A stretch of 64,000 bases of DNA from an uncultured delta proteobacterium (GCA_963817385.1 CAWFOM010000006.1:245242-309241); one strand, 5' to 3'. Shown: positions 10,678 through 17,050, numbered from the stretch's first letter. The notes: generated from the letters alone by a model not told the origin. Made by a program: numbers and translations.

Positions 10678-13080
10678 CTACTTCTTCTCCTTCTTCTTCA
10701 TTTCAGCGCACAGGCATGCCTCGGGAGCGAACTGCCAGTTAATCCGTCCGACCTCGTCGCCCATGTATATCTGCCGAATCGCAACGCCATGACCGTATAC
10801 GATCTTGCCTTTGTGTGGGCGAATCTTGAACACGCAAGGCAGGCGCCCCATTCGTGGGATTTTGACCTCTTCCAACATGATTCGAGGACGGGCTGGAAGC
10901 GTCAATCGTGCCTTATCGCGCTTCTTGTCTTGGACAAGTTTCCATGGGTTTTCACCCTTGAGGCGTATGAGCAACCCCAACGGCCCTTCCAGTTCCAGCA
11001 CCGCGTCCTCGGGCAGTCTTCGCTCGACCTCAAACGCGAAGAGCCGTGCGCGGTCATCTGCTCCGGCCAGTTTGAAGGAAAAGGAGGGGGTAGCGTCCGG
11101 CGTGTCTGGAAGGTTGTTCACGACGTTGAAGTTGCGCCACGTAACGTTGTTGTGAGCGCGGATCATGTCCTGGAATGAGGCCCAGTCGAGAGGACCCGGA
11201 GTTGGGGGCGCCGGGTCATTGAGGTGCTGCAGCGTAGCGACGAAGCAGTAGTGGGCTATGCCGGGAATCCCTGCTTTGGGCCAAGCCAGTCTGGGGGAAA
11301 CCGTCAGCACGTTGCCGACGGGAACCAGGGGGAGAGTCACGCTGCCGATGAGGTGCCATGTCGAGGGGGTGACCAACGTGGCAACTTCGCTCCAGTAGAC
11401 CGTAGCGGCGACATTGGTAGCCGGCGCGCCTCCCCGATTGCGCACCCTCACGTAAATTGAGTTCTCCTGGCCGGACTCTACCTCGTACCCGAGAGTTTCC
11501 GAGTTTTCCGTTCCGCTTCCCTCACCATAGGTCAGTTGAGGATCGGCTACAGGTGAGGGGCGGACAATGACATCTGGACTGGTGGAAATGGAGCCCATCC
11601 ACGGAACGGCTCCACTGTCTCCAACGGCGTCGCGAAGGTAGATGTCAGGCAGAAGCCCCAGTGTGGGCACGATCGCGGCTAAGTCGGGCATCACGGCAAT
11701 AGCACCCGCGACCCCGGCTCCCTGCGGTGTGCCGGTGGCGGGATTCGAGAGTAACGCCCGCATCTGCCCCGGAGAGAGTTGCGTGCCGGTTGCCGACTGG
11801 TAGTTAGATTGTACCAGCGCCGCTGCACTCACGATAATCGGCGAGGCGCTGCTCGTGCCTTGGAACGTGTCGGTGTACCACCTGTCGGCGTTGCCACCGC
11901 CGTTGTCGAGATCGCCGTAACCGGTGGAGGTGACGTTCTCTCCCCAGGCGAAGCAGTCAATGCGGCTTCCGAAGTTGGAAGCCCACCAACGGTTGTGTGG
12001 TACGGTCGAGACCGAAGCCCCCACCATGATCGCGCCTGAGTCCACGAAGTCGGCCGACGTTCGATTAAGCCGCCGGAGTCCTCCAGGGGTGCTCCAAGCA
12101 TCGAGGTCCGTGTCCCCGTTCCCGCCGGCCTCCACCACGATGATCCCCCGCGCCGTCGCCAGCCGGATGACGTCGAGACGGTCGTCGAGCGTCTCGACGG
12201 GCAGGAATGAGGTCTGCAATTCGATCAAGAGAATCTGGCCGACCGACATGGCTGCCACCGCGGCGACCAGCGCGTCGGTCACGTGCTGTACACCGCCCGC
12301 GTCATAGATCGAACTCATCCGTATGGAGTTAATCGCAGGGGCCGAGCCAACCACCCCTACCGTGTTGTCACTGGCCAAGATCTCGCCTAAGACCGCGGTG
12401 CCGTGATCCTCCCAGCTTGCGTATTGGACACCATGGATGAGTGTCGGCGTCTTGCCGGCGAGGTCCTCGTGGGTCACCCGCCAGCCACCTTCCACATCGA
12501 CGATGCCGATGCCGGCCCCTTCTCCATTCGGCTGCGTCCACATCCAACGCGCGTCGATGCCCACGGGAGCGGCGTCCTGGTAGTCCTGACCAGCATTGTA
12601 CGCGTCATCCCCCGGAGTCACGACGGGTAGCGTGGAGAGCGGCTCCTCCCAGGCCGAGTCGACCTCCGGCAACGACGACAGCATCTCGATCAGCCGGGTG
12701 ATTTCTTCCCGCGGGCGTTCACGTAGGTCGAGGCGCCAGTACTGGGTAAGACTATGCAGCGGTGGATATTTGGTGTGAGCCACCTCGCGCTCCAAATCCA
12801 GGATTTTCTCAGCCGGAACCGAGCGTACCAGCCGGTGGGATTCAGGCGAGCGGGCGTTCTCAAGGACCTGGGACAGGCCCTTCAAGGCATATATCTTCGC
12901 ATGGGCAACGAGCGTATCCGCCACCTTGTCCCGCCCGACAGGACTCGCTTCGGCGGCGAGTCTAATAACCACCATGCCCGAAGGCCGCTCCGCCTTCGCC
13001 GGATCCCCGATCATGGGACGAACCGGCAACCCCCGGACGACTTCCCTTTTTTTCTTTTCGCTTGTTTCATTCTGATTCAT
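10678..13080 (-). CDS. S8 (subtilisin-like) serine peptidase with N-terminal prodomain and C-terminal beta-rich domains
   Basis: Triad IVDVEGG / DHGTAVLG / FQGTSSASP and oxyanion EAGGNG; no obvious signal peptide. Confidence 0.9.
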   Translation of the reverse strand: MNQNETSEKKKREVVRGLPVRPMIGDPAKAERPSGMVVIRLAAEASPVGRDKVADTLVAHAKIYALKGLSQVLENARSPESHRLVRSVPAEKILDLEREVAHTKYPPLHSLTQYWRLDLRERPREEITRLIEMLSSLPEVDSAWEEPLSTLPVVTPGDDAYNAGQDYQDAAPVGIDARWMWTQPNGEGAGIGIVDVEGGWRVTHEDLAGKTPTLIHGVQYASWEDHGTAVLGEILASDNTVGVVGSAPAINSIRMSSIYDAGGVQHVTDALVAAVAAMSVGQILLIELQTSFLPVETLDDRLDVIRLATARGIIVVEAGGNGDTDLDAWSTPGGLRRLNRTSADFVDSGAIMVGASVSTVPHNRWWASNFGSRIDCFAWGENVTSTGYGDLDNGGGNADRWYTDTFQGTSSASPIIVSAAALVQSNYQSATGTQLSPGQMRALLSNPATGTPQGAGVAGAIAVMPDLAAIVPTLGLLPDIYLRDAVGDSGAVPWMGSISTSPDVIVRPSPVADPQLTYGEGSGTENSETLGYEVESGQENSIYVRVRNRGGAPATNVAATVYWSEVATLVTPSTWHLIGSVTLPLVPVGNVLTVSPRLAWPKAGIPGIAHYCFVATLQHLNDPAPPTPGPLDWASFQDMIRAHNNVTWRNFNVVNNLPDTPDATPSFSFKLAGADDRARLFAFEVERRLPEDAVLELEGPLGLLIRLKGENPWKLVQDKKRDKARLTLPARPRIMLEEVKIPRMGRLPCVFKIRPHKGKIVYGHGVAIRQIYMGDEVGRINWQFAPEACLCAEMKKKEKK

Positions 13081-13217
13081 GTTGATCCTCCTTTTTGAAC
13101 AATTGATGGTATGCAGATGATCTCCTCTCTTTTGTCACAAGATTTAGACAGGTTAGCTTTTTCAGTAGGGTTACAAATAACAGCCCCCAAAGAGGTATAA
13201 CAACTCCGTGGAGGCCT

Positions 13218-13250
13218 TCATATTGGCACCTTCCGGTAACTCCTTCTCAC
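13218..13250 (-). promoter_or_regulatory. Putative leader mini-ORF MRRSYRKVPI* with downstream hairpin (copy 2)
   Basis: SD AGGAGGT-CACC-GTG, 10 codons, TGA, then hairpin GGCCTCCA...TGGGGGCT and GTTATTT; lies in the 5' leader of the S8 gene. Confidence 0.6.
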
Positions 13251-13436
13251 GGTGACCTCCTGGAGGTTAGTGTTTTAGGTTTGGGGTTAACGGTGACCGG
13301 GCAAGAAGGAGATTGAGATCTGGCTATCTTGAAAGATGCTCTTAAGGTCAGATGGAGATCAGTTGGAACTCAAACTTGGATTTATTGGGAAATAATGAAC
13401 AAACCTCCAAAAGGACGTCATGTCCTGCTGGAGGCT

Positions 13437-13469
13437 TCATATTGGCACCTTCCGATAATTCCGTTTCAC
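13437..13469 (-). promoter_or_regulatory. Putative leader mini-ORF MKRNYRKVPI* with downstream terminator-like hairpin (copy 1)
   Basis: GGAG-TCCACC-GTG, 10 codons, TGA, then hairpin AAGCCTCCA...TGGAGGTTT and a T-rich tail. Confidence 0.6.
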
Positions 13470-13657
13470 GGTGGACTCCGGGAGGTTAAGGGGAAGGTTG
13501 ATGGGTTTACCGAGATGATAAGAGAAGCTACAATCGAAAAATATTCTTATGCGAATGTAAAGTCAAGAGGAAAATAGCATCAGTTCTCAGACTGCAGCAT
13601 AGTTGCAGCAAAAGAAAAAGGGGCCACAGAATAAGCTCTGTAACCCCTCGTTTTTTC

Positions 13658-13702
13658 TGGAGCCGATGAGCAGGATCGAACTGCTGACCTGCTGATTACG
13701 AA
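13658..13702 (-). repeat. Duplicated 3' 45 bp of tRNA-Thr (att site)
   Basis: Identical to 14758-14802; identity ends within the anticodon loop. Confidence 0.92.
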
Positions 13703-14138
13703 AAAGATATACTCATGTTCTACCCCGCATTACTGCTGTATTTTATTTTTTGACTGTGTCCCAACAGAGTATTTTAAGGTCTTTCCCGTGTCCCAGATTC
13801 ATAAGTCCCGTCCTAATCTATGTTTTGTCCGTTCTCATGATTCTCCTTTAAAAAATTGATCCTCGGGTTTTTTATTTAGTATTTCCTGTAACAAAGCATC
13901 TGATGATTTTTACAGGCATACTTTATTTCAAACGATATTCAATAAGCTCGGGATATTCCGGAGACAATAAAGTAGGTTAATAAGTTGTCTGACTCTCCTT
14001 AACGTATCCCTCAATATATTGAGGTTTCACCAAATATTGAGGCAAACAGATCGTTTCTCACTTCTCTGCTGTTCTGTGCTATTAATCTAATCGCCTGTTA
14101 TTATAGGATGAATCAAAACTTCTGATTTTTTCCAACTA

Positions 14139-14155
14139 TTGGCAAGTCATTTGCT
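14139..14155 (+). promoter_or_regulatory. Putative sigma-54 promoter with upstream palindrome at 14009-14024
   Basis: TTGGCAAGTCATTTGCT (GG-N10-GC); perfect palindrome CCTCAATATATTGAGG ~115 bp upstream, plus a related half-site at 14028-14042. Confidence 0.6.
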
Positions 14156-14215
14156 GTTATAGCTTAACGAAGGGCTATGAAAGTTTTTCAAAAAAGATAA
14201 AAAGAGGAGGAGGCG

Positions 14216-14383
14216 ATGAAGAGAATCATTATGCTGGCAATGGTTTTGGTGATGATGCTTGCATCTATTGGAGGATGTTCGCCATGGTGGAATAAAGATG
14301 GCGGGGGTGGAGGAGATGGAGGACAGCGGTCATCAAGGCCTTCAAGGAATGGAATAACAGGATTTGAAGCTCCTTCTCATTGA
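14216..14383 (+). CDS. 55-aa Gly-rich putative lipoprotein (below the ORF-track cut-off)
   Basis: SD AGGAGGAGG; MKRIIMLAMVLVMMLASIGGC signal peptide and lipobox, then SPWWNKDGGGGGDGG. Confidence 0.7.
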   Translation: MKRIIMLAMVLVMMLASIGGCSPWWNKDGGGGGDGGQRSSRPSRNGITGFEAPSH

Positions 14384-14757
14384 AAGTGATCATATGGGTC
14401 AAAGAGTTTGAGAATTTGCGGAACGAAAAGATCATTCGCATTTCCAACGATAATCAATAAACTTTAACCTCTTTGCCTTCGTTTGATTGTAGGTGTTATC
14501 GGATAAGATCGATGAGGCCCTGAAAAACATTTCCCAGTATTTTTTTAAATTCATCGTTTTTTTAATTAAGGCAAGTGGGAAATTTGTTCCAGACTGACCA
14601 ACTGATTAATTGCTGATTAAGACGAATGATAAAAAAATAGTCGTAAATGCTCTATATTATTATGTTTAATTAAAGACCAGAAAGAACAGTGGGACACAGT
14701 GTGTCCCTTTTTTCATAATAAAGGGGTCACGATTTCACTCGTAACCCCTTATTTTAC

Positions 14758-14833
14758 TGGAGCCGATGAGCAGGATCGAACTGCTGACCTGCTGATTACG
14801 AATCAGCTGCTCTACCGTCTGAGCTACATCGGC
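14758..14833 (-). tRNA. tRNA-Thr (anticodon CGT)
   Basis: 76-nt cloverleaf GCCGATGTAGCTCAG...TTCGTAA...GTTCGATC...ATCGGCTCCA with encoded CCA. Confidence 0.97.
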
Positions 14834-15084
14834 CTTACATCCTGTGGTGCATGTACCTCTTTTCAAGATTTGCCTATCTATCGCAAGCAATACCCCTTGT
14901 CAAGGTTTTCATGCGCACGCTTTCATGCGTTCGTTTCTGTTGGATACGGAGATCGCCTTGACTTTCAGGGCTTCTCTGATATTATCCCTGAAATTTGTCT
15001 GGGGGGAAGTGTGGGACGGTGTTTTCACCATGACCAGGGAATAATTGGCTCTCCCGTCCGAGAGGCTCGACGGAAATAACTGCA

Positions 15085-17050
15085 ATGTCTCTGAAGGAAA
15101 ATCTCAGATACCGAAGCTGGGTCGAGGTCGATCTCGGCAACTTCGCCGCGAACTGGGCGGAAATGAAGCGGCTGGTCGGTCCCACTGCGCAGATCATGCA
15201 GGTGGTCAAGGCGGACGCCTACGGCCACGGGGCGATTGAGATCTCCAACGTCGCCCTCGTAAACGGCGCCTCCTGCCTCGGCGTGGCGAACGCCGACGAA
15301 GGGGTGCAACTCCGGGTGAGCGGGATCACCGCTCCCGTCATCATCCTCTCCCCTGCCACCGATTCCGAGATCGACCAGATCATCAAATATAACCTGATCC
15401 CCTCGGTATCCGATCTCGGCTTTGCCCGGGAATTTCAGAAGCGGGCCCGCAAGGCCGGCATCCGCACGCCCATCCATGTCGAGGTGGACACGGGGATGGG
15501 CCGGGGCGGCACTACCCGGGAGGAGGCCGTCCCGGTCATCCGGGAGATCGCCGCCTTCCCCAATCTCTGCCATTGAGGGGATCTTCACCCATTTTGCCGA
15601 AAGCGAGATCCTCTCCTACTACAATGACCTGCAGTGGCGCTCCTTCGCGGAGATCCTGGAGAAACTGGCGGCGCACAACATCACGATACCGATCCGCCAC
15701 ATCTCCAACAGCGGCGCCATCCTGAACTACCCGCAGTTTCACCTCGACATGGTGCGGCCGGGGATCATCTCCTACGGGATCTACCCCTCGCCGGAAACCC
15801 GGGCGAAGGCCTCCCTCGCCCCCGTGATGAGCTTCAAGACGCGGGTGGTCCTCGTCAAGGAGTTCCCCGAAGGGTACAGCATCGGCTACGGCCGGACCTT
15901 CATCACCCGGCGGCCCACCCGGATCGCCACCATCCCGGTCGGCTACGGCGACGGCTTCGGCTGGCTCCTCGGGAACCAGGGGGAGGCCCTGATCCGGGGG
16001 AGGCGCGTTCCCATCGCCGGCCGCATCTCGATGGACATGTGCACGCTCGACATCAGCCAGATCCCGGAGTGCCAGGTCGGCGAGGAGGTGGTCCTCATGG
16101 GGGAACAGGGGGGCGAGCGGATCACCGCCGACGAGATCGCCCGGAAGGTGCATACGATCAGCTACGAGATCCTCTGCGCCCTCGGGAAGCGGGCGCCGCG
16201 GGTCTTCCTCCACCAGGGGCGGGCCGACCGGGTGGAACCGAGCCTCCGGCGGATCTTCATCCCCGATGAGGAGAAATCGATCTCCCGGATCGACACGATC
16301 ATCCGCCACTGCTTCCAGACGCGGGCGCGCAACGAGGAGCTCGGCGACGCGATCTACTACGAGATGTTCGAGACCCTCTTCGGCAAGGAGGACCGCCAGC
16401 TCGAACTCAGGGACGATTTCCGCTACGCCATCCACGTGACGGAGTTCACGCCGGAGGAGGAGGTTCCGGAGGAGCTGCGGCGGGATTACTTCAAGGTCAC
16501 GACCCATGTGGAGTACACGAAGGCCATCCGGCACGCCCACTTCGTGATCGGCTGCGCACAGGACAACGAGCAACTGGCGGCGTTCTTCGAAGACAAGCGG
16601 TGCGAATACCGCTGGCTCCTGAACGGCGGGGAAAACCTCACGGCCGAGAGGGATTTCCGGGTGAACGGCGTCCGGATCGATGGCGAGGCGGTGCCGATCA
16701 TCCGGACGGAGAGCACCGCACGGGGCTATGAGGTCTGGTGCGGATCGGACGAGCTCAAAAAGAAGCTCAACCGTCAGGTCCGGGTGGAAATCGAGATCGA
16801 AACCAAAAAACTCAAAGCCAACCGGCTCTTCTCCGCCTACCTGGTCTATCCAACCCGGGGGATGGAGATCTCCTTCAATTACGGAGGGACGAATATCAAA
16901 AACGTCCGGGACGTCGGTTTCTTCGCCGGGAAACACCCCTATCCGGAGGTGACCCGGGAAAAGGGGAAATCGGTCACCCTCCGCCTCGGGAACGATGCAT
17001 GGATCTTCCCCACGAGCGGTGTGACGTTCATTTGGGATCTGGTAGAGTAA
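15085..17050 (+). CDS. alr: Alanine racemase with ~270-aa C-terminal extension, +1 frameshift near 15570
   Basis: VVKADAYGHG PLP-lysine, VDTGMGR, VRPGI, IGYG, PVGYGDG, GRISMD, TISYEILC. Confidence 0.9.

Follow-up and report, generated by a model that had tools for sequence, protein, structure and literature searches.

In enterobacterial attenuators of the pyrBI/pyrE type, a ribosome that translates up to or into the terminator blocks its folding, provided that it stays close behind the polymerase, and no antiterminator is needed; these attenuators sense UTP via polymerase pausing and have no conserved peptide. For msrD, which encodes a streptococcal macrolide-resistance ABC-F protein, the leader ORF (MsrDL) is very short, and a ribosome that is held where it ends is described as blocking the Rho-independent terminator that lies directly downstream, which results in read-through; the leader senses a macrolide and controls this one resistance gene (PMC10314930). 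The bmrB/bmrCD locus of Bacillus subtilis is described as being controlled by a small translated leader ORF that contains or abuts an intrinsic terminator; induction requires translation, and this single locus has three alternative stem-loops and responds to translation inhibitors (PMC4191407). The amino-acid leaders trpL and hisL, as presented in PMC1183508, also combine a short upstream ORF (uORF) with a terminator in the 5' leader, the first hairpin overlapping the ORF. Arrest peptides of the RAPP and RGPP type are reported to share a short conserved C-terminal motif in which proline follows a basic residue; they are found upstream of Sec/YidC genes and act on translation of the next gene (PMC10951233, PMC12992588). 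In the text of PMC12992588, mention of Desulfobacterota is confined to a figure legend.

The stretch of DNA analysed here, referred to as the window, comprises 64,000 nt from an uncultured delta proteobacterium. On its minus strand the gene of an S8 peptidase is preceded by two copies of a leader in which a short uORF ending in K-V-P-I is followed by a terminator-like hairpin, and which is termed the KVPI leader below. Like MsrDL it has a very short ORF with a terminator directly downstream, but its peptide is unrelated, it is present in about 10 copies per genome before unrelated genes, and the stalling is proposed from the sequence. Whereas bmrB has three alternative stem-loops, only one helix (P1) and the terminator are supported for the KVPI leader. 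It differs from the trpL type in that regulatory codon runs are absent from the collected peptides, the downstream genes are non-biosynthetic and there is no 2:3 antiterminator. RAPP is reported to be avoided in proteomes (PMC12992588), whereas KVPI is not avoided in the proteome of the genome analysed here and is followed by a terminator. As no antiterminator was seen, the leader resembles the coupling attenuators of the pyrBI/pyrE type.

Leader-peptide terminator switches are already known as a kind of device. The novelty lies in this family, with its peptide, the number of copies per genome, the variety of downstream genes and the recurrent tandems. It has apparently not been described before: no description of this leader element was found in the literature searched, nor was any paper on leader peptides and attenuation in Syntrophus, and the main text of Naville and Gautheret 2010 (PMC2965389) mentions neither Syntrophus, Deltaproteobacteria, Geobacter nor names in Desulfo-.

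The two-copy leader of the S8 peptidase gene

The features of the leader are given in Table 1. When the sequence was re-read, the two uORFs, their minus-strand coordinates and their peptides were as given in the earlier note, as were the four differences between them, namely K/R, CGG/AGG, N/S and TAT/TAC. The layout it described is also present in both copies: AACCTCC, one nucleotide and GGAG or GGAGG lie on the 5' side of the GTG start, followed by ten codons, TGA and a GC-rich, T-tailed hairpin directly 3' that abuts the end of the uORF. The downstream gene likewise proved to be a peptidase with a Pfam Peptidase_S8 match. Only the mention of three copies has to be corrected, as both the count of the core and the matches of a covariance model (R1, see below) give two in the window.

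Table 1. Features of the leader and its surroundings (positions in the window)
Feature	Position	Strand	Sequence or basis
51-nt repeat of the tRNA-Thr 3' half, with terminator, upstream of the leader promoter	13702-13614	minus	
Sigma-70-like promoter of the leader, TTGACT-17-TATTTT	13538..13566	minus	9 of 12 matches
Conserved G-poor 5' box, GTAAACCCATCAACCT	13495..13510	minus	family comparison
Helix P1, copy 1	13447..13498	minus	MFE and centroid fold; family covariation
P1 strands, copy 1: ACCTTCC with GGAAGGT (codons 6-8)	13498-13492 with 13453-13447	minus	
uORF copy 1, MKRNYRKVPI stop	13469-13437	minus	GTG AAA CGG AAT TAT CGG AAG GTG CCA ATA TGA
Terminator-like hairpin, copy 1: AAGCCTCCA...TGGAGGTT + TTGTTCATTATTT	13390..13437	minus	folding; family inner-stem covariation
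Inter-copy spacer module, 119 nt	13271..13389	minus	homologous to spacers of two other loci of the same genome
Small hairpin inside the spacer module	13339-13323	minus	
Copy 2 pyrimidine box and SD: CTAACCTCC A GGAGG	13256..13270	minus	
uORF copy 2, MRRSYRKVPI stop	13250-13218	minus	GTG AGA AGG AGT TAC CGG AAG GTG CCA ATA TGA
Copy 2 hairpin: GGCCTCCA...TGGGGGCT + GTTATTTG	13174..13217	minus	
SD (AAAGGAGG) and 800-aa S8 (subtilase) peptidase ORF (ORF proper 13080-10678)	10678..13096	minus	PF00082, E 1.1e-16

The start codon of copy 1 is preceded by TTAACCTCC-C-GGAG, and P1 of this copy surrounds the second pyrimidine box AACCTCC, the Shine-Dalgarno sequence (SD) GGAG and the GTG start. In the copy 1 hairpin, the 5' arm begins 1 nt past the TGA. 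From the end of the copy 2 hairpin it is 78 nt to AAAGGAGG and the ATG of the peptidase ORF. A simple terminator scan missed both hairpins because their loops exceed the limit of the scan. Folding of copy 1 gave -37.5 kcal/mol (z -2.49) with P1 present. Copy 2 has two mismatches in P1 and folds no better than its shuffles (z -0.6), and it alone shows an alternative fold.

The two cores form a 54-nt direct repeat of 87% identity at a spacing of 219 nt, and a 23-nt core occurs twice in the window compared with 0.00 occurrences expected from shuffles. The spacer module between them has no Rfam match and no promoter-like site on the minus strand, and because of the latter the two modules most likely lie in series on one transcript. 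The block that runs from the -35 element of this leader through the terminator recurs in two other copies of this genome (X3 and X4, W1 being the copy in the window).

Family size, hosts and downstream genes

The covariance model R1 was built from 17 copies with a structure set by hand, BLAST having been used before it. R1 and BLAST together place 10 copies in this genome, two in the window and eight elsewhere. These 10 precede eight genes, and stand in series before two of them, the S8 peptidase gene and that of a 99-aa protein with no Pfam match; the others encode a universal stress protein, an LCAT-like esterase and four proteins with no Pfam match. R1 matched 23 of 36 genomes of the host's family, 34 of 151 genomes of its order, Syntrophales (11 of 24 families), and 14 of 151 genomes taken as a sample of the phylum; of those 14, 12 fall outside the order. 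Copies per genome reach 10-12, the highest numbers in the order and phylum searches being 11-12.

A pattern scan in which each species was represented by a single genome turned up 85 loci. Of these, 80 were fetched, and R1 confirmed 61 copies in 49 of the 80. The confirmed hosts are Syntrophus, Syntrophaceae, Syntrophales, Syntrophobacterales, Desulfobacteraceae, Desulfonema, Desulfatiglandales and unclassified Deltaproteobacteria or Thermodesulfobacteriota. R1 did not confirm the other 31 loci (in Arthrobacter, Bacteroidales, Scytonema and others), and their number is roughly what the pattern should give by chance, according to our own uncomputed estimate.

The earlier note had taken the element for a candidate undescribed family of 5' leaders in sense orientation, and both parts of this stand. 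The covariance model and the search of related genomes yielded 173 distinct copies from Syntrophales and other Desulfobacterota, although copy counts overstate the independent support because all copies are related by descent. No known family was matched in Rfam 15: in positions 12000-15500 of the window, searched with E up to 10, only a tRNA reaches its gathering score, and ten copy-bearing loci searched with E up to 1 gave 0 matches. Placement could be judged for the 160 copies that are followed by 450 nt of sequence or more, and in 153 of these an SD-preceded ORF begins on the same strand within 520 nt. The median distance from copy to ORF is 97 nt, with 52 and 183 nt as quartiles; for 47 of these 153 copies it is at most 60 nt, which leaves scant space for another promoter. 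The longest downstream open frame has the same orientation as the copy in 130 cases and the opposite one in 28. A sigma-70-like pattern lies within 80 nt upstream of 81 of the 173 copies.

Under a looser peptide rule, the 173 copies comprise 108 of type A, 21 of type B and 44 that are other or unparsed. Relative to type A, type B (MRRWGYQKMIM) carries an in-frame insertion of 3 nt and has Ile in place of Pro. Eleven tandems were seen; six of them have type B followed by type A, and the reverse order was not seen. The parsing rules of the scripts are heuristic, and 22 to 54 copies were dropped from individual counts.

Pfam was run on 72 downstream proteins. The matches include Usp, GYD (3), ABM (2), DUF3303 and SRPBCC; several alpha/beta hydrolases together with further hydrolases or peptidases, namely DLH, penicillin amidase, trypsin, fervidolysin prodomain and GGT; two nitroreductases with TAT signals, TctB and TctC; and CSD, cNMP-binding and adenylate cyclase domains. 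No match was obtained for 32 of the 72. Neither a shared pathway nor an evident common function is seen among these 72 proteins on the basis of Pfam, so that the element is not a leader of amino-acid or nucleotide operons.

Conservation of the uORF and of the RNA structure

An SD (mostly GGAG), an ATG or GTG start and a hairpin arm could be parsed in 84 of 106 copies, with the start codon 7-17 nt from the first base of the SD and at 10 nt in most. The peptide consensus is M-[KR]-x-x-[YF]-[RQ]-K-[VLM]-P-[ILM]. A conserved nascent-chain motif, as in arrest peptides of the ErmCL, MsrDL and TnaC type, is present: K[VLMI]P[ILMV] is in frame from the start codon in 65 of the 115 copies that had not been chosen by sequence pattern. 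Synonymous variation, which the earlier note saw between the two window copies, is also seen in the tail of these 65, where the lysine codon is AAG in 52 and AAA in 13, the hydrophobic position is GTG (35), GTA (16), ATG (6), TTG (4), CTG (3) or GTC (1), proline is CCA (31), CCG (24), CCC (5) or CCT (5), and the last position is ATA (42), ATG (12), CTA (4), ATC (2), TTA (2), ATT (2) or GTA (1). Copies from other orders keep KVPI, KVPL or KVPM with differing codons. This includes copies L148 (AAA GTG CCA TTA TAA) and L150 (AAG GTG CCT ATA), in which the 5' strand of P1 is unrecognisable by eye.

The distance from the start codon to the hairpin arm changes by a multiple of three in 28 of 44 non-modal cases; in the flanking segments such changes make up 9 of 64 (hairpin), 3 of 19 (box to SD) and 10 of 27 (SD to start). 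Codons 2-6 are most variable at the second position, not the third, and the constraint on the uORF looks confined to a basic N-terminus and the tail. Some copies have defects: X3 has CTG in place of the start, the copy at L018:1449-1580 has no start, two copies (L033, L036) have an in-frame TAG at codon 6, and 5 of 67 newly collected copies are frame-shifted, so that CCAGAAGG is read as P-E-G, yet they retain the nucleotides CCAGARGG.

The earlier note expected start, stop and frame to be kept, and while SD, start and frame mostly are, the stop is not. About half of the copies have UGA directly after the conserved tail, and the others have a sense codon there. Of the 84 parsed copies, 48 (about 57%) have a stop 1-5 nt upstream of the arm, 41 of them at exactly -3. 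In a further 33 the frame continues into the hairpin, reading ...PI[FRSW]-S-L-Q-G, and its ends are unconserved; in three it stops, under the heuristic parsing, earlier or barely past the start of the arm. Judged by these patterns the frame is very probably translated, and what is conserved is the peptide tail together with its register with the hairpin, not the stop. KVPI is found 6 times in the proteome of this genome compared with 6.6 expected, so that it is not avoided and a strong unconditional arrest motif is unlikely. The ribosome may still pause at KVPI under some condition or in some contexts, or be released slowly there.

In the family, P1 is formed by ACCUUCUGG, just 5' of the SD and overlapping it, with YCRGAAGGU, which corresponds to codons 5-8; in type B the 3' strand corresponds to codons 2-3. 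Its cells are paired at 83% and 90% in the two alignments that were fitted to the model, and pairing drops to 35-60% when the registers are slid. Five of seven pairs in one of these alignments (A3) and five of nine in the other (A2) are changed on both sides, and none of 500 shuffles showed covariation as high as that observed. A2 and A3 lean to the model, but the same two variable P1 pairs are also among the top covarying column pairs when 49 type A copies are aligned with plain MAFFT, unfitted to the structure. The duplex energies of P1 with its own partner were better than those with permuted partners in 300 of 300 trials, as were those of the hairpin base, and P1 was found in the MFE folds of most copies tried, type B included.

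The hairpin begins 4 nt past the last conserved codon. Its base is conserved in sequence (GCCUCCA/UGGAGGC), and there is covariation in its upper stem, where each pair is changed on both sides in 5 to 20 sequences and GC/AU exchanges are many. RNAalifold on the first MAFFT alignment gave only four inner hairpin pairs, and the structure was then set by hand. All parsed copies have a GC-rich hairpin, and 53 of 75 have a U-rich tail after it; the tail is seen in 34 of 44 copies whose stop adjoins the arm and in 19 of 31 run-in copies, a difference that is not significant (Fisher p 0.2).

Three pairings had been proposed in the earlier note. That of ACCUUC with GGAAGGU inside the ORF is borne out by the covariation of P1, and the other two are not: 252 of 300 permutations were as good as the observed pairing of the pyrimidine box with the hairpin 3' arm, and 55 of 300 as good as that of the SD with the hairpin 5' arm. 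The 5' box fared no better with the hairpin 3' arm (157 of 300), and showed no copy-specific complementarity to the N-terminal part of the uORF. A sense leader ORF with SD and start, and an intrinsic terminator before the gene, are thus found as in attenuators in general, but these tests of own against permuted duplexes found no antiterminator pairing that would exclude the terminator. Close matches to the 5' box in the genome are in copies of the leader, many looser ones (up to 3 mismatches) lie elsewhere, and no RNA complementary to it was seen when both strands were scanned. Readings of conserved stretches as sigma-54 or CIRCE-like sites were dropped after inspection by eye.

A proposed mechanism and its alternatives

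The reading we lean towards is that the KVPI leader is a translation-coupled terminator switch. The order of the module is a promoter (often its own), a G-poor leader with the 5' box, P1, the uORF, the hairpin and the gene, and the loop of P1 holds the SD and start codon of a uORF of 10-11 codons. When the uORF is not translated, P1 and the hairpin would fold and RNA polymerase would terminate. A ribosome that loads on the nascent leader and trails the polymerase would melt P1 and, on reaching K-V-P-I with Ile or the next codon in the decoding centre, would cover the 5' arm of the hairpin; the terminator would then be unable to form and the gene would be transcribed. The footprint assumed here is based on the reach of a ribosome, which is usually 12-15 nt downstream of the P site. 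The conserved tail may serve to prolong the stay of the ribosome at KVPI or to make that stay conditional, and its conservation suggests that the duration of the stay matters. As no antiterminator pairing is supported, the switch would rest on masking by the ribosome alone. At the S8 peptidase gene, where two modules follow one promoter in series, transcription would have to clear two checkpoints.

Several observations sit uneasily with this switch. P1 encloses the SD and start codon, and should impede the very translation that is required. The stop is unconserved, with 36 of 84 copies having none adjoining the arm, and some copies have no start, an in-frame stop or a shifted frame. Variation at the second position is highest in codons 2-6, 22 of 75 hairpins have no U-rich tail, and the conserved sequences of the GCCUCCA/UGGAGGC stem base and the 5' box are left unexplained.

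A bolder version, which we regard as speculative and rather unlikely, is a dispersed arrest-peptide regulon, in which the KVPI nascent chain would itself sense a metabolite or the state of a translation factor and hold the ribosome conditionally on the terminator arm. If true, this would amount to the peptide-based equivalent of a riboswitch class, copied before eight or more unrelated genes per genome in several orders of Desulfobacterota, and the heterotypic tandems (type B then type A) would be two-input gates.

It is less likely still that the leader is a cis-regulator made of RNA only, in which P1, the 5' box and the hairpin base would bind a protein or small ligand that decides on termination, and the uORF would be incidental or tolerated. 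Such a regulator would account for the covariation of P1, the absence of a third-position excess in codons 2-6, the sequence conservation of the stem base and 5' box, which has no coding reason, the CCAGARGG nucleotides kept in the five frame-shifted copies, the copies with no start or with an in-frame stop, and one copy (L145) that retains P1 and not the peptide. It would not account for the persistence of K-[VLM]-P-[ILM], in which proline takes any of its four codons and V/L/M and I/L/M replace one another, nor for the tail in L148 and L150, where the 5' strand of P1 is not recognisable by eye. The enrichment of multiple-of-three length changes in the uORF segment only, the SD and start in 84 of 106 copies and the absence of an Rfam family match also speak against it.

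Each module might instead be a small gene of its own that makes a trans-acting sRNA (CU-rich and anti-SD-like) or a ten-residue micro-peptide, its proximity to other genes being secondary, but this is very improbable. The promoter-like site before 81 of 173 copies, the terminator-like tail after 53 of 75, the 10-12 copies in some genomes and the anti-SD-like pyrimidine boxes are in its favour, and terminated leaders would in any case accumulate as short RNAs, which is compatible with the terminator switch as well. However, 153 of 160 copies are co-oriented with a gene at a median of 97 nt, in 47 of 153 the gene starts within 60 nt, and no complementary target of the 5' box was found in the genome. 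The C-terminal extensions of the run-in copies are unconserved, which also disfavours a functional free peptide. The LhrC and RoxS-like sRNAs are multicopy and trans-acting with C/U-rich motifs, and a multicopy trans-acting sRNA of that kind is disfavoured here by the strong bias in orientation and proximity.

Similarly improbable is a stop-restart arrangement, in which the ribosome would reinitiate at an AUG or GUG that overlaps the UGA (AUAUGA, AUGUGA), aided by the SD-like AAGGUG of codons K-V, and translate a second uORF, M-K-P-P..., into the terminator arm, with a dwell at Pro-Pro dependent on EF-P or prolyl-tRNA. The mgtP leader of Salmonella is a precedent for a dwell of this kind. It is also reported that translation becomes uncoupled from transcription at intrinsic terminators once EF-P is lost (PMC5021804). 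All 38 UGA stops adjoining the arm are overlapped by ATG (29) or GTG (9), with AAGGUG 5 nt upstream of the overlapping start; the second frame begins MKPP or VKPP in 36 of 54 copies, and AUA, a rare codon (11% of Ile codons in this genome), is used in 42 of 65 motifs. A second uORF reading through the hairpin was nonetheless rejected, as this frame is open through the hairpin in 37 of 54 copies, no more than the unused third frame (47 of 54), which served as control. In addition, type B has no SD-like motif near the stop, copies with a TAA or TAG stop and run-in copies have no such start, and CCUCC is already accounted for by its pairing with GGAGG.

RNA thermometers such as ROSE and fourU have a hairpin that sequesters the SD of the regulated gene itself, and a thermometer was rejected here since P1 encloses the SD of the uORF, the SD of the gene lying a median of 97 nt beyond the hairpin.

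We return to the translation-coupled terminator switch. Leader-peptide attenuators are usually devices of one operon that respond to an amino acid, a nucleotide or an antibiotic, whereas here the same peptide and terminator, often with their own promoter, are copied before many unrelated genes, including those of secreted hydrolases and peptidases, universal stress proteins, small GYD/ABM-like proteins and nitroreductases. The bacteria that carry them are slow-growing syntrophs, a group that has been little studied, and the covariance model can be used to annotate regulated genes in Desulfobacterota metagenomes. If the switch holds, these bacteria would have a regulon that is wired via the ribosome and not via a DNA-binding protein, and KVPI would be a new short candidate motif for ribosome pausing.

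Order and extent of the leader copies

The two versions of the leader module, which are distinguished by the peptide of the upstream ORF (with a KVPI-like tail in type A; MRRWGYQKMIM-like in type B), occur in a recurrent tandem in which a type B module, complete with its terminator, is followed 15-134 nt on by a type A (KVPI) module. This order was seen in six of the 11 tandems and the reverse order in none. In three copies (L033, L036 and L053, in genomes G022, G044 and G018 respectively) an insertion that follows the first hairpin arm and starts another ATGAGAAGG stretches the match to the covariance model to ~187 nt; in two of these three, codon 6 of the first upstream ORF is TAG.

Conserved sequences between and behind the copies

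The spacer separating the two window copies is itself a conserved module, present at three loci of the same genome, and carries a small hairpin (ATCTT...AAGAT) with a loop of variable length. No Rfam match was found for it. Behind type A copies whose upstream ORF runs into the hairpin, the gene repeatedly encodes a protein family of ~99 aa with the pattern MV.IG..SFPTESSKEMGKRF..., for which there was no Pfam match, and an additional conserved stretch, TTTTACGAT.CTCAGAATATCTATTTTCATA, separates the hairpin from this gene.

Promoter block and tRNA-Thr repeat

A second copy of the 3' half of the tRNA-Thr(CGU) gene, 51 nt long and 98% identical, is found 1100 nt downstream of the first, and a similar terminator start lies behind both copies. 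The intervening 1.1 kb is AT-rich with short ORFs only, and the region resembles what an element that inserted at the tRNA gene would leave behind. The leader promoter begins ~50 nt past the second repeat. Within the shared promoter block an imperfect inverted repeat, ATAAGAG-N19-CTCTTAT, extends over both the -10 region and the probable start site. In other genomes this inverted repeat is only loosely kept; it could serve as an operator or form a 5' stem.

Locations of the features (L, leader loci; G000, genome of the window; C, its contigs)
Feature	Location	Strand
tRNA-Thr(CGU) gene	window 14758-14833	minus
tRNA-Thr 3'-half repeats	window 13652-13702 and 14752-14802	minus
Shared promoter block	window 13520-13566; L025, L048 (G000 C6:183.9 kb, C31:68.3 kb)	
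Inter-copy spacer module	window 13271-13389	minus
Further spacer-module loci	G000:C6 about 150170-150262; downstream of G000:C25:47901	
Type B to type A tandems	L028, L064, L094, L130, G000:C6:150034-150401 (L211)	
~99-aa protein family	L211:375-671 (G000), L029, L028, L086, L074, L075
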